Virus record (IMG/VR): IMGVR_UViG_2778261360_000011 | Location: 1 to 5,197 of that record | Length of the DNA stretch: 5,197 nucleotides | Direction: 5' to 3' (one strand) | DNA from: a virus | Taxonomy: Duplodnaviria; Heunggongvirae; Uroviricota; Caudoviricetes | Program-made: the position numbers and the translations under genes | The notes under the pieces: model-generated | What the model was told of the DNA's origin: nothing | The model's input: only the letters and a program-made list of their open reading frames with translations | The model's database searches: none | Shown here: positions 292-5,197 of the stretch, piece by piece | Position numbering within the stretch: position 1 is the first letter of the stretch | How the letters are laid out: each line of letters starts with the position of its first letter

Positions 292-1815
292 ATGGATGAT
301 TCAGGAGACCCAATCATGGTTCTCCCGGAATCTGGGAGCGCTACTGATGTCATGTTGCAGCTTGCTGCCACCGATGGGTTTAAAAATATCGGTTCCTGCC
401 CTGATGTGGCCACATTAAGAAATACTGAACCTTCGTCAGTAAACCAGCAAATTATTGTCAGAGGTTATTATAGCGATACCCCCGGTCTTGGAGGTGGGGT
501 GTTCATGTCGTTTGGCAGTTCTGAAGCTGACGATGGTGTGAATATTTTTGTTACCCCCGGAGGTAAGCGCTGGAAGCGAACAGGAAGCCACATCGATATT
601 CCGGTAGAGAATGGCGGCATGATGGTGTCTAGGACGGCTGAGCAAAACAGTGAAGCCTTTGAACGTCTGACCGCATGCCTTCCATATGAAGGAGGTACGC
701 TCAGGCTCAATGGATTTTACGATATTAAGTATGGCGCTATCGTGCCTCCACGTGTCACGCTGGAGGGGTGCGGTATGGATTCCTGTGGATTAATTAAAAC
801 AGGTAACGATATTAAAACCGTTCCGGATCGCATGTGGCAGGGTGTACCACACAGCTTCTCCAAAGACTTTATTGTTGCGGTAGATATGGATAGTGACACA
901 TCAGGTGATTTAAGCGGGACACAAACAAGAAGCACCAGAATAATTGGATTGAGTATTCTAAATACTGCGCCAAATCCTTGTGATTACGGGATATATAGCG
1001 CTATCAGTTACAATGTGCGCCTTCAGGACCTGTATATTCATAGGGTGAAAACCGGTTATCGCACTAGTGATAGCTGGTTGCAGACATGGGCAAACATTAC
1101 TATTCAGGATGTCGTTACTGGAGTTAAAATCGAAGCAGGTGGAACCACATATAATTTAAACAATATTTATGTGAAAACATGTTCAGGTGTTGGATTCGAT
1201 CTTAAAAATCCGACATATAGCACAATGACAGGATGCGCTGTGGATTTTGCAAATGGAACCGCATATAAATTTGTGGATTGCACCGGGATTGTGTTAGATG
1301 GTTGTGGGTGCGAAGAAATAACAGGGACACAGATATATGCTCGGGGTTCTAGAATTTGTATTAATGGTTTTAGAGGGGTAAATCCAAAGAAAGGAGATGC
1401 AGAATCTTTTATACTTGATTCATCTGTAATTAATTTAAACTCATCTTATCTTCCTGATTATGTTGGAGGTGGTACAGATAAATACACCAAGATAAATGCG
1501 GCGGTGATAAATTCGAATAACTCTATATTTCCTGACCATGCAAACAATAAAATCACATGGGGCGGTGTTCAATCCATAATTAATATTCATGATGAAAGAG
1601 GTGGATACTCAGTAACAGGAAATTCAACGTATACTGTTCTTGGGAGGGTTGAGGGAGGGGTGATTACAATACTCTCTCTACTGCCACCTACGGGAGATGC
1701 TAATTTTTACCCAATTGGTACAAGGTGGGAGTTACTGTATCCATCGGCTGTAGGTCCGTACAAATGGATTTTGTTAGCGGATAAAATTTGGCGTGTTGCA
1801 GGATCATCATCGTAA
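292..1815 (+). CDS. Phage tailspike / tail-fiber receptor-binding protein, beta-helix type (probable polysaccharide-binding or depolymerase domain); 5' end unresolved
   Basis: ORF track 292-1815 (507 aa), stop TAA 1813-1815. Translation has the repetitive N/G/T/I-rich pattern typical of right-handed parallel beta-helix tailspike domains (e.g. NLNNIYVKTCSGVGFDLKNPTYSTMTGCAVDFANGTAYKFVDCTGIVLDGCGCEEITGTQIYARGSRICINGFRGVN), with an N-proximal GGGVF motif. Context fits: directly upstream of an O-antigen-modifying acyltransferase. ATG 292 has no Shine-Dalgarno sequence, and the same frame is open and protein-like back to position 67 (NYYDALGNYIRNLRDPSRPQDAATKSYVDG...) with no ATG/GTG/TTG, so 292 is probably not the true start. 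Confidence 0.7.
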   Translation: MDDSGDPIMVLPESGSATDVMLQLAATDGFKNIGSCPDVATLRNTEPSSVNQQIIVRGYYSDTPGLGGGVFMSFGSSEADDGVNIFVTPGGKRWKRTGSHIDIPVENGGMMVSRTAEQNSEAFERLTACLPYEGGTLRLNGFYDIKYGAIVPPRVTLEGCGMDSCGLIKTGNDIKTVPDRMWQGVPHSFSKDFIVAVDMDSDTSGDLSGTQTRSTRIIGLSILNTAPNPCDYGIYSAISYNVRLQDLYIHRVKTGYRTSDSWLQTWANITIQDVVTGVKIEAGGTTYNLNNIYVKTCSGVGFDLKNPTYSTMTGCAVDFANGTAYKFVDCTGIVLDGCGCEEITGTQIYARGSRICINGFRGVNPKKGDAESFILDSSVINLNSSYLPDYVGGGTDKYTKINAAVINSNNSIFPDHANNKITWGGVQSIINIHDERGGYSVTGNSTYTVLGRVEGGVITILSLLPPTGDANFYPIGTRWELLYPSAVGPYKWILLADKIWRVAGSSS

Positions 1816-1822
1816 AAATTAA

Positions 1823-1850
1823 TTGCCAAATTTAAATATACAGCTATTAT
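1823..1850 (+). promoter_or_regulatory. Candidate sigma70-type promoter for the acyltransferase gene
   Basis: TTGCCA at 1823-1828, a 16-nt spacer, then TATTAT at 1845-1850, about 30 nt upstream of ATG 1881 in the 65-nt gap after the tailspike stop. The region is very AT-rich, so a chance match is quite possible. Confidence 0.25.
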
Positions 1851-1880
1851 TTTGCACAATACTATGCATAGGTGCAAAAA

Positions 1881-2855
1881 ATGGATGAGAAAGTAATCAA
1901 TATTAGGGCCGTAGCTGCTATTATGGTTGTAGTTCTTCATATTAATTCGCAGTATTTTTATGACATTACGAGCTACTGGCCTGTTTTCGCTTTGATTGGT
2001 TCAGCAATGCGGCCATGCGTGCCTATTTTTATAATGATTTCAGGGTATTTATTGATAGGAAGAGTTATCAGTTCAATTGATTTTATGAAGAGAAGAATAT
2101 CAAGACTTCTTCCTCCAATATTATTTTGGGGGGTGTTTTATGTTTTTTTTGTATCATTTGTTGGAAACGCACAAGTTTCAATAAATTCACTCATGTCAAT
2201 ATTAATTGATCCTCCAATGTTTCATCTATGGTATCTTTATTTGATTGTTGGCGTTTATCTCATGATGCCTATTTTATCATCTTGGTATTTGTCGGCATCA
2301 TTTGGTGATAAGATTTTTTATATTTCGCTTTGGTTTGCATGCCTGCTTGTTGCTCAGTTTGGCCTTGGTGTTGAAATTATAAATAGATATTATCTTGGTC
2401 AATTTTCAACATACTCGTTTTATTTAATAGTGGGTGCTTTTGTTAAGGAAATTTCATTTAAGTACAATGTAAGATGGTCTGTTCCAAGCATGGTTTATAT
2501 TCTAATTACATTACTAATAACAACTCTTACGATTTATGACTGTTATAATAATGGAGCGCCGTCAGAGAAGTATTATGAATACACAAATCCAATGGTTGTT
2601 CTTCAATCAATATTTCTATTTATGGCGTTAATTAAGCTTAACAAATCAAATTGGTTTACAAAAGTTGTTTCAAATTATTCCCTTGGAGTTTATTGTGTTC
2701 ATGTTGCGATAATATTACTAATATTCCCTACAATAAAGACAACAATAGATAATGCATTCCTTTCATACTTTGCATCTATTTCTTTAGTTCTGATCTCATC
2801 AGTTATAATTAGCTCAATTATCAGATTGGTTCCTTTTATAAAAAGTGCATCGTGA
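1881..2855 (+). CDS. Acyltransferase family 3 (AT3) integral-membrane O-acyltransferase, probable phage-encoded O-antigen acetylase (serotype conversion)
   Basis: ORF track 1872-2855. ATG 1881 is preferred over GTG 1872 because AGGTG at 1869-1873 sits 7 nt upstream of it. The protein is strongly hydrophobic with about 10 predicted membrane-spanning segments. It carries an N-terminal R-x10-H motif (NIRAVAAIMVVVLH) and an xSGY/F motif (FIMISGYLLIG), both characteristic of AT3 acyltransferases such as phage O-antigen acetylases. It has no C-terminal SGNH domain. GC is roughly 25-32% in lines I counted by hand, far below the flanking lysis genes (about 53%). Confidence 0.85.
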   Translation: MDEKVINIRAVAAIMVVVLHINSQYFYDITSYWPVFALIGSAMRPCVPIFIMISGYLLIGRVISSIDFMKRRISRLLPPILFWGVFYVFFVSFVGNAQVSINSLMSILIDPPMFHLWYLYLIVGVYLMMPILSSWYLSASFGDKIFYISLWFACLLVAQFGLGVEIINRYYLGQFSTYSFYLIVGAFVKEISFKYNVRWSVPSMVYILITLLITTLTIYDCYNNGAPSEKYYEYTNPMVVLQSIFLFMALIKLNKSNWFTKVVSNYSLGVYCVHVAIILLIFPTIKTTIDNAFLSYFASISLVLISSVIISSIIRLVPFIKSAS

Positions 2856-3109
2856 GTGCTTTAGTTGCATGAGACAAAAGCGGGACACACAAGGCTTTGC
2901 ATTGGTAACTGAATCCTCTGTACCTATCACATTGTCGTGGCACCTTACAAAGTTAGGCATCAAAAGCCACGTCATAGCTATGGAGCCAGAAAACACCTCA
3001 CCTATTCAGAATGTTTTTAGGGATTTCAATTAAACCATATATGTATTAATTGTGTATGATGGACTCACCAACTAAGGTGGGTCTTTATGCACAGTAAACG
3101 GTGGTTTCT

Positions 3110-3514: not shown

Positions 3515-3809
3515 GCTTTTTTTTCTTATCACCAATGCAGTTATTTGTACTGGCATAGCAATTCGCGTTGTCACATTTCGGCGTAACGGGTCACAACACC
3601 GAAGATGGGGAGGGTGGCTTGCTTATTTCCTGATTGTTGCTGCGGCCAGTATTCCTGTTCGTGTCGCCTATGCAATCTGGTTACGCACGCCAATGGCTGT
3701 GGATTTATCTGAGGTCATTATCAACGCTGTCATGCTCGCTGCGGTTATTAAAACGCGCGGTAACGTCGTTCAAATTTTCAAAGTATCGAGGTCTAAACAT
3801 GGAGATTAA
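3501..3809 (+). CDS. Putative holin (102 aa, 2-3 transmembrane segments, basic C-terminal tail)
   Basis: ATG 3501 is preceded by GGGGAG at 3487-3492 with an 8-nt spacer. Hydrophobic segments [42 protein letters not shown] and [19 protein letters not shown], a basic loop ([11 protein letters not shown]) and a charged C-terminus (KVSRSKHGD). It lies immediately upstream of the endolysin and overlaps its start by 11 nt. Confidence 0.65.
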
Positions 3810-4344
3810 ACAATTCCAGCGAGCTGCTGGTATTAGCGAGGCGCTGGCCGCACGCTGGTTTCTGCATATCACTGCTGCCATGAATGAGTTTGGCATTATC
3901 AAACCAGATGACCAGGCGATGTTTATCGCGCAGGTCGGGCATGAGTCCGGAGGATTTACCCGGTTACAGGAAAACTTCAACTACAGCGTTAATGGACTGT
4001 CCGGGTTTATCCGTGCCGGACGCATCACGCCGGACCAGGCCAGCACGCTGGGACGAAAAGCATATGAGAAGTCTCTGCCTCTGGAGCGCCAGCGTGCGAT
4101 CGCCAATCTGGTGTACAGCAAACGCATGGGGAACAATGCCCCTGGTGATGGCTGGAATTACCGAGGGCGCGGACTTATCCAGATTACCGGTTTGAATAAC
4201 TATCGTGATTGCGGAAACGGCCTGAAGGTTGACCTGCTGGAGAGCCCTGAACTGCTGGCGCAGGACGAATATGCGGCTCGTAGCGCGGCGTGGTTCTTCG
4301 CCAGCAAAGGATGCATGAATATACCGGCGATATTGCACGTGTAA
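3799..4344 (+). CDS. Endolysin, glycoside hydrolase family 19 (class I chitinase-like lysozyme); as encoded the ORF is 3'-truncated by an apparent -1 frameshift
   Basis: ATG 3799 with GAGG at 3788-3791, 7 nt upstream. The 236-aa ORF 3634-4344 in the track is an upstream extension artefact that overlaps the holin out of frame. The protein has GH19 hallmarks: GHESGG with the likely catalytic Glu at residue 49, a second Glu nine residues later (LQENF), [12 protein letters not shown], and AAWFFASKG. There is no signal peptide or signal-anchor-release (SAR) segment. The frame ends at TAA 4342-4344 (181 aa), but the conserved GH19 C-terminal block ([18 protein letters not shown]...KVLAV) is encoded in the next frame from 4323 to TGA 4425-4427. 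Confidence 0.85.
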
Positions 4345-4423
4345 CTCTGATTATCAATGGTGGCCGGAACGGCATCGACGACCGGCGCGCGCGGTACATC
4401 ACTGCCAGTAAGGTGCTGGCGGT

Positions 4424-4906
4424 ATGATCTGGGCATTCGCAAAAGCATACTGGAAACAGTTGGTTATCATGGCGATGCTTGCTGTTCTGGTCATATCAGG
4501 AGTTGTAGCCTGGAATGCACACGGCAGTCGTCAGTACGATGCCGGGTATGCGCAGGCGAAGAAAGACCGCAAAGCTGAAGATGAGATAGTTCGTCAGCAC
4601 TACGAACAGGAGAAATCGATCAATGAACGTGAAGCGCAGCATAGGATCGACCAGGCGCGCAATGATGCTCTTGATGCTGCCGCTCGCGCTGGCCGGTTGC
4701 AGCAACAGCTCGTTGCCATCCGTGAGCAGCTCAGGCACTATAACGCCATTGTCGGCGCTGGGTCGTCAGCCGCAGACACCGGAGTTTTGCTTTCCGACGT
4801 GTTCAGCAAATCTCTCGAGAGAAATAGACAACTGGCAGAGTATGCTGACCGGGCATCCGAAGCCGGAAGAGTCTGCGAAAAACAGTACGACACCCTGACC
4901 AGATAG
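4424..4906 (+). CDS. Rz-like inner-membrane spanin (i-spanin)
   Basis: ATG 4424 is the first start after the in-frame stop at 4409-4411, with AAGGTG at 4410-4415 upstream. N-terminal transmembrane segment (LVIMAMLAVLVISGVVAW) followed by a long charged, coiled-coil-like periplasmic region rich in Q/R/E/A (RIDQARNDALDAAARAGRLQQQLVAIREQLR) and a C-proximal Cys. It sits last in the lysis cassette. Confidence 0.8.
   Translation: MIWAFAKAYWKQLVIMAMLAVLVISGVVAWNAHGSRQYDAGYAQAKKDRKAEDEIVRQHYEQEKSINEREAQHRIDQARNDALDAAARAGRLQQQLVAIREQLRHYNAIVGAGSSAADTGVLLSDVFSKSLERNRQLAEYADRASEAGRVCEKQYDTLTR
4623..4898 (+). CDS. Rz1-like outer-membrane lipoprotein spanin (o-spanin), fully embedded in the +1 frame of Rz
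   Basis: ORF 4623-4898 lies entirely inside the Rz gene in the +1 frame. AGGAG at 4607-4611 precedes ATG 4623. Signal peptide with a lipobox (MMLLMLPLALAG-C, then Ser at +2), and a Ser/Pro/Thr-rich mature part. Alternative starts are the ATGs at 4662 and 4665. Confidence 0.7.
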   Translation: MNVKRSIGSTRRAMMLLMLPLALAGCSNSSLPSVSSSGTITPLSALGRQPQTPEFCFPTCSANLSREIDNWQSMLTGHPKPEESAKNSTTP

Positions 4907-5062
4907 CATGGCATTTTTCACGGTACTGATTTCCGGTGACGGTATATAAAACGGTACGGGAAAAATTGAGATTTGGAAAAATGTTATCACTCAATTGGTT
5001 ATGGTTATCGTAAATAATTGAGTGGGAATGATTTGACCCTGCACTATGAATGAAATAAATAT

Positions 5063-5086
5063 CCTCCGGCATAGCCGGAGGTTTTT
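5063..5086 (+). terminator. Rho-independent (intrinsic) terminator downstream of the lysis cassette
   Basis: Perfect 8-bp GC-rich stem (CCTCCGGC at 5063-5070 pairing with GCCGGAGG at 5074-5081), a 3-nt loop, then TTTTT at 5082-5086. An A-rich tract (AAATAAAT) precedes the stem, so it could also terminate transcripts from the opposite strand. Confidence 0.75.
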
Positions 5087-5197
5087 CAAATGCGCCTATA
5101 AGGCTCTCTTACCAGCCGCGCCCTAACAGGCGCACACGATCTGACATTTGCATCCAACTTCGTTACTTACGGCCCGTAAACGGGCTGCCCGGATAGG

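Follow-up and report, generated by a model that had tools for sequence, protein, structure and literature searches.

The closest described relatives of the locus analysed here are the attachment sites of phages phiV10, epsilon15 and vB_EcoP_ZX5, whose integration target is the 3' end of host guaA and whose attP/attB core has been published as ATTGAGTGGGAATGATT (PMC9782041). For ZX5 the attB, attL and attR junctions were PCR-amplified and Sanger-sequenced (PMC9782041). The gene order in the free phages epsilon15, phiV10, SPN1S and BUCT554 is Rz-att-int, while the lysogen E. coli EC0026B reads guaA-attL-int ... Rz-attR-yfgI, with guaB-guaA about 40 kb upstream and the prophage int immediately after them. 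The GenBank record of epsilon15 also annotates GTGACGGTAT as an integrase binding site, a prediction of its depositors, and carries two predicted IHF features, at 26700-26722 and 26720-26742. Among the more distant systems, the attP of phage lambda has the layout P1-H1-P2-X1X2F-H2-COC'-H'-P'1P'2P'3, with the arm-type and accessory-protein sites placed on either side of a short core.

The window, that is, the whole stretch of 5,197 nt that was analysed, ends in a repeat-rich segment downstream of Rz. We are highly confident that positions 4907-5033 of this segment are the attR of an epsilon15/phiV10-like (Uetakevirus) prophage, generated by tyrosine-integrase recombination into guaA at its 3' end. 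A sequence-only reading had taken everything between Rz and the next hairpin for a single 3' untranslated region ending in a terminator. The distance it gave was right, there being 156 nt between the Rz stop codon (TAG, 4904-4906) and the hairpin and T-run at 5063-5081, but the interpretation was wrong: the region after Rz is a composite of three origins, in which phage DNA, 20 nt of host DNA and the end of an IS200 element are joined. The same reading had offered a module junction as one possibility, and there are in fact two junctions, from prophage to host at the att core and from host to IS200 at 5053/5054; the right boundary of the prophage is 5033. The attachment site itself is already-known biology, since its core has been published and a public record already carries predictions of the arm and IHF sites, and what is new here is only the placement of an IS200C element about 20 bp from the att core, which is a minor point.

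The phage records matched by megablast with 4400-5197 belong to the epsilon15/phiV10 group, genus Uetakevirus; across Rz and the P arm, the phiV10-type phages are 94-96% and epsilon15 is 87% identical to the window, and the similarity to free phages always ends at about 5033. In the E. coli lysogen EC0026B and in the TL-2011b record it runs on to 5054, with host yfgI as the next gene. A search of complete E. coli genomes with 4907-5053 found the complete attR in 536 of 5426, while non-lysogens (e.g. DH1 and XL1-Blue) matched only 5017-5053, beginning at query base 111, which is window position 5017, under the 3' end of guaA. Comparison of four att sites (attB of K-12, attL of EC0026B, attP of phiV10 and attR of the window) leaves ATTGAGTGGGAATGATT, at 5017-5033, as the sole block common to all four, and the flanks switch as expected, with the phage P arm to the left of the core and E. 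coli DNA (5034-5053) to the right. This comparison, together with the split between lysogens and non-lysogens in the E. coli search, is the basis for assigning 4907-5016 to the phage P arm, 5017-5033 to the core and 5034-5053 to the host.

The last phage coding base before the att region is that of the Rz stop codon. Rz (orf 4424-4906, plus strand) is a DUF2514 i-spanin (Pfam E=1e-41) with Rz1 embedded in it at 4623-4898. The P arm that follows is the half of attR that comes from the phage; it can be aligned, with no indels, to the interval between Rz and int in phiV10, epsilon15, SPN1S and Enterobacter and Klebsiella phages, and is absent from non-lysogenic E. coli. The 17-bp core comprises the last four codons of guaA, the stop codon and 2 nt, and reads ATT GAG TGG GAA TGA, the IEWE-stop end of the gene; beyond it, the 20 nt at 5034-5053 are the B' flank, from the guaA-yfgI intergenic region. 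The whole of 5017-5053 is 100% identical to non-lysogenic E. coli, and the same flank is found in the lysogens EC0026B and TL-2011b. As compared with the att sites of epsilon15, phiV10 and ZX5, the one described here has the identical 17-bp core, in the same position directly after Rz/Rz1 and, in the free phage, before int; like them, it has the invariant arm block and the predicted IHF-like sites described below. It differs from them in the IS200C element in the host flank and in a few point differences, such as CACGGTAC vs. CATGGTAC.

Within the core region, the layout is probably a C site AATAATT (5013-5019), an overlap GAGTGGG (5020-5026) and a C' site AATGATT (5027-5033), as suggested by the dyad symmetry and by the shorter (11-bp) identity seen at a Klebsiella attR. 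In that case, the prophage ST512-KPC3phi13.3 (locus L009, approximately 1310-1330), the identity between phage arm and host ends after ATTGAGTGGGA and the host continues with GTAATCC, probably a guaA with GAG TAA at its end; the crossover is thereby confined to the leftmost 11 bp of the core as it stands in E. coli. To the right of the core, the P' arm of phiV10 carries a phage terminator (AACCCTCTGTTTTTACAGAGGGTTTTT, locus L002, 3179-3211) whose 8-bp stem is shared with AAAACCCTCTGTTACTACAGAGGGTTTTTT, the guaA terminator of the host, in the guaA/yfgI intergenic region of K-12 (locus L007, 3405-3433). The phage seems to carry a copy of the host gene end together with its terminator, such that guaA would keep both its stop codon and a terminator after integration.

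Conservation was followed in an alignment of the att regions of seven phages with hosts in four genera (E. coli, Salmonella, Enterobacter and Klebsiella), as mean pairwise identity by segment, and proved to be block-like, with not a single indel from the arm block to the core. The 3' end of Rz (4895-4906) shows 66% identity; the arm block CCGGTGACGGTATATAAAACGGTA (4933-4956, plus strand) shows 100%, with 24 of 24 columns invariant. The A/T-rich spacer at 4957-4984 drops to 56% (8 of 28 columns invariant) at constant length. Identity rises to 83% in 4985-5003, which includes the left arm of a dyad and where the invariant positions spell TCAA-N4-TTA, falls to 35% in the dyad loop (5004-5009), which takes in the second GGTTAT, and returns to 100% in the core-proximal block (5010-5016) and 93% in the core.

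The repeats that had first drawn attention to this region all lie where they had been reported: CGGTAC at 4921-4926 and 4952-4957, CGGTGA at 4934-4939, CGGTAT at 4940-4945, a direct repeat GGAAAAAT at 4959-4966 and 4975-4982, and an inverted repeat, CACTCAATT (4988-4996) and AATTGAGTG (5016-5024), that encloses GGTTATGGTTAT (4997-5008). In a repeat search the arms of the inverted repeat grow to 14 nt (4988-5001 and 5011-5024), with 86% complementarity. Whether their density is unusual depends on the repeat, as judged from 2000 mononucleotide shuffles of 4907-5054. Four CGGTR motifs on one strand were reached in none of the 2000 (mean 0.2), so that the CGGT cluster is beyond chance. A perfect inverted repeat of at least 9 bp appeared in 3.5% of shuffles, which is marginal, and a direct repeat of at least 8 nt in 17%, which is not significant. 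Free variation in related phages, which the sequence-only reading had named as its refutation, holds for some of the repeats and not for others. The inverted repeat, though marginal statistically, is yet conserved in relatives, as are CGGT motifs 2-4; neither GGAAAAAT nor GGTTAT is repeated more than chance would give, and in the relatives the former and the second GGTTAT vary freely. The two GGAAAAAT copies are best read as part of an unconserved A/T-rich spacer of fixed length. A further direct repeat, 4903-4920 against 5071-5088 (72%), was rejected as a chance resemblance between phage and IS sequence.

We read the CGGT repeats as predicted arm-type integrase sites. Candidate site 1 is ACGGTAC at 4920-4926, candidate site 2 is GGTGACGGTAT at 4935-4945, inside the invariant block, and candidate site 3 is ACGGTA at 4951-4956, all on the plus strand; the C that follows site 3 at 4957 is C or T in relatives. 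At the homologous positions the epsilon15 record has its predicted integrase-binding feature, GTGACGGTAT. The 11-mer GGTGACGGTAT has exactly two copies in the 39-kb phiV10 genome, one in each arm of attP. Of the eight genomic copies of GACGGTAT in phiV10, three fall in the 317-bp att interval, where 0.06 would be expected, and for ACGGTAY the count is 4 of 15 vs. 0.12 expected, an enrichment of about 30-fold. The phiV10 integrase has the Pfam arm-binding domain PF13356 (Arm-DNA-bind_3, E=4e-20) in addition to its catalytic domain; the int of the prophage in the window lies outside the window. The first CGGTAC counts against the arm-site reading, since CGGT is not conserved there: the other phages have TGGTAC or GGGTAC, only GGTAC being kept, and one Klebsiella phage lacks this stretch.

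The sequence-only reading had also proposed a protein-binding site, and this stands in so far as the predicted binders are integrase and IHF at a site for site-specific recombination. In the whole window there are six one-mismatch matches to the IHF consensus WATCAANNNNTTR, and three of them, consensus matches only, lie here, at 4985-4997 (plus strand), 4989-5001 (plus) and 5011-5023 (minus). The first two are overlapping registers, TATCACTCAATTG and ACTCAATTGGTTA, of a putative site at 4985-5001 that forms the left arm of the dyad and corresponds to the epsilon15 IHF feature at 26700-26722; the third, ACTCAATTATTTA, forms the right arm, overlaps the core and corresponds to the feature at 26720-26742. 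The IHF-like matches thus coincide both with the two predicted features of the epsilon15 record and with both arms of the inverted repeat; a predicted IHF-like site sequence within 4975-5035 is TCAATTGGTTA. On the evidence of these matches, the inverted repeat appears to reflect two inverted IHF-like or core-proximal sites, one of them overlapping the core, and GGTTAT would be explained as part of a predicted IHF-like site. The second site overlaps the presumed crossover region, which would be unusual for an IHF site, and its invariance may equally be explained by its being core and core-type site.

These elements can be put together in a recombination scheme of the familiar kind. The N-terminal arm-binding domain of the integrase would bind the ACGGTAY and GGTGACGGTAT motifs in 4920-4957 as well as the P'-arm copies of the motif, which in the lysogen would lie at attL beside int, and IHF would bend the DNA at the TCAA-N4-TTA site or sites in 4985-5023, allowing the arm-bound integrase to reach the core. 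The catalytic domains would then exchange strands at AATAATT-GAGTGGG-AATGATT, in which inverted core-type sites would flank an overlap of 7 bp. In excision, attR would pair with attL to rebuild attP and the intact end of guaA. The logic of such a scheme is that of lambda attP, with repeated arm-type sites far from the core and on both sides of it, IHF-consensus sites between arms and core, a short core in common with the host, and an integrase with an N-terminal arm-binding domain. The motifs, in contrast, are unrelated in sequence to those of lambda, and the arm sites are different in number and spacing. The integrase, with its Arm-DNA-bind_3 domain, is P4-like, and integration takes place at the 3' end of a protein-coding gene, an end that the phage core reconstitutes. 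The invariant 24-bp arm block and the fixed spacing offer targets for studies of arm recognition by P4-type integrases that target protein-coding genes.

The third component of the region is the right end of IS200C, which begins at 5054 and runs off the window at 5197. This segment matches thousands of E. coli IS200C copies, both chromosomal and plasmid-borne, at 96-100% identity, over window positions 5036/5054-5197, and is 100% identical to an annotated copy (H56). Six IS copies with unrelated flanks diverge immediately to the left of AATAAAT, placing the boundary at window position 5054, with an ambiguity of 1 nt as the host also has A there. The orientation follows from the annotated tnpA: the window holds 144 nt of the element, including the last 11 codons and stop codon of the gene (5163-5197, minus strand; stop codon 5163-5165). 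On its match to these copies, the hairpin at 5063-5081, CCTCCGGC-ATA-GCCGGAGG with a T-run on both strands, is the right-end subterminal hairpin of IS200C and not a phage terminator. An intrinsic terminator of the phage's late (lysis) operon was rejected on the same ground, although a hairpin and T-run do follow Rz. The TnpA of the IS200/IS605 family is described as recognising subterminal secondary structures (PMC6006769), and the segment agrees with IS200C, a member of that family with a Y1 TnpA, in having both a subterminal hairpin and the 3' end of tnpA. The well-studied bidirectional terminator of IS200 is at the left end of the element, at nt 12-34 (PMC4513863), whereas the one in the window lies downstream of tnpA, at the right end; complete IS200 copies have the left-end hairpin, CCCCCAGC-TA-GCTGGGGG, at their other end. 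A second inverted repeat lies inside the right end of IS200C at 5091-5134, with arms TGCGCCTATAAGG and CCTAACAGGCGCA separated by 18 nt, and is conserved in all six aligned copies of IS200 and IS1541.

In lysogens that are free of the IS, the host guaA/yfgI bidirectional terminator occupies the equivalent place after the core, and the free phage has its own terminator in the P' arm (phiV10 26781-26813), outside the window. Late transcripts leaving Rz in this lysogen would meet the IS200 hairpin rather than the host terminator. The exact 31-mer across the host/IS200 junction was absent from viral contigs, from GTDB species-representative genomes and from JGI metagenome contigs, no complete E. 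coli genome covered at least 80% of 4900-5197, and the expected far junction, in which the IS200 left end ...TGTGCACAAAAA would be followed by the host terminator (A)CAAAACCCTCTGTTAC, was absent from genome contigs. What had looked like a suspicious repeat-rich 3' UTR is thus the attachment site of a common prophage family, with about 10% of complete E. coli genomes carrying the attR, and its apparent terminator belongs to an insertion sequence; beyond correct annotation, the importance of this is small.

Of the further readings, the one that survives best concerns the 39-bp dyad (4987-5003 and 5009-5025), which is kept across the genus and pairs the IHF-like P-arm site with the left half of the att core; we know of no description of such a dyad at P4-type att sites. 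The dyad might, for example, provide the integrase with a second, inverted site of core type, or extrude as a hairpin that governs in which direction recombination runs or what becomes of the lysis transcript. Independently of the dyad, excision or transcript termination in the lysogen might be altered by the IS200 end, which lies about 20 bp from the core. We regard these suggestions as speculative and improbable.

Even less probable is a structured RNA in the 3' UTR of the lysis transcript, with 4987-5025 as a stability or processing hairpin and 5063-5081 as the phage's own terminator. Late transcripts do physically cross the att DNA, the predicted folding is stronger than expected (z is -3.6 over 4907-5090 and -2.3 over 4907-5053) and includes a hairpin of 16 bp at 4987-5025, and the 4987-5025 helix is pairable in 94.6% of cells of the seven-phage alignment. 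However, much of the z-score comes from the IS200 hairpin rather than from phage DNA, and the 3' arm of the helix is invariant because it is att core and guaA end. There are zero compensatory changes among the seven phages in this, the only conserved helix, and the commonest change in the 5' arm (C to G, in four of the seven) breaks a pair. No Rfam 15 family matches 4907-5197 even at E<=1, and a scan of the whole window at that threshold gave only a spurious lncRNA match at 1357-1469. The free phage, moreover, differs to the right of 5033, and therefore no single RNA element spans the region; the RNA stability element that had been proposed from the letters is not borne out.

A terminase recognition site (pac or cos) or the operator of a transcriptional regulator, both also suggested earlier, would fit the non-random CGGT cluster and the resemblance of clustered short direct repeats to some pac sites and operator arrays, but is extremely unlikely, the phiV10 terminase genes being at 41-2187, some 24 kb from the homologous interval between Rz and int (26.6-26.9 kb), the same 11-mer GGTGACGGTAT recurring across the att core beside int in the pattern of integrase arm sites, and a promoter scan of 4300-5197 finding no promoter-like site on the plus strand, which also leaves an int or other P-arm promoter unsupported. 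Two minus-strand orfs (4803-5072 and 4766-4990) were likewise rejected as genes, as both are antisense to Rz and the longer one crosses the junctions between phage, host and IS.

The attR described here belongs to a prophage that is probably decaying, with an IS in the tail-fibre gene, a frameshifted endolysin and the IS200 beside attR. The endolysin gene (3799-4427) has a 1-nt deletion at 4319/4320, ATGAA-TATAC vs. ATGAAGTATAC in EC0026B and phiV10, that shifts the frame of the GH19 endolysin, with an early stop at 4344 and roughly the last 36 codons out of frame; the deletion may be genuine, inactivating the gene in a decaying prophage, or may be an error of sequencing. At the left end, positions 1-103 are 98% identical to the end of a two-orf (327 and 891 bp) mobile element found in many Stx phages, which we take to be IS629-like (IS3 family), with a terminal inverted repeat ending at about 96. 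In the tail-fibre gene that it cuts, the match to phiV10 starts only some 412 nt into the gene, which is thus 5'-truncated. With an IS element at either end, the window is suggestive of a short repeat-bounded contig.

Between the two ends, 405-3100 looks like a swapped module for receptor binding and O-antigen modification. The tailspike orf at 292-1815 has no Pfam match, and its distal part is without a megablast match in the phage collection. The same is true of an acyltransferase (Acyl_transf_3, 1872-2855), which is encoded on the plus strand, whereas those of phiV10 (oac) and EC0026B are minus-strand genes.
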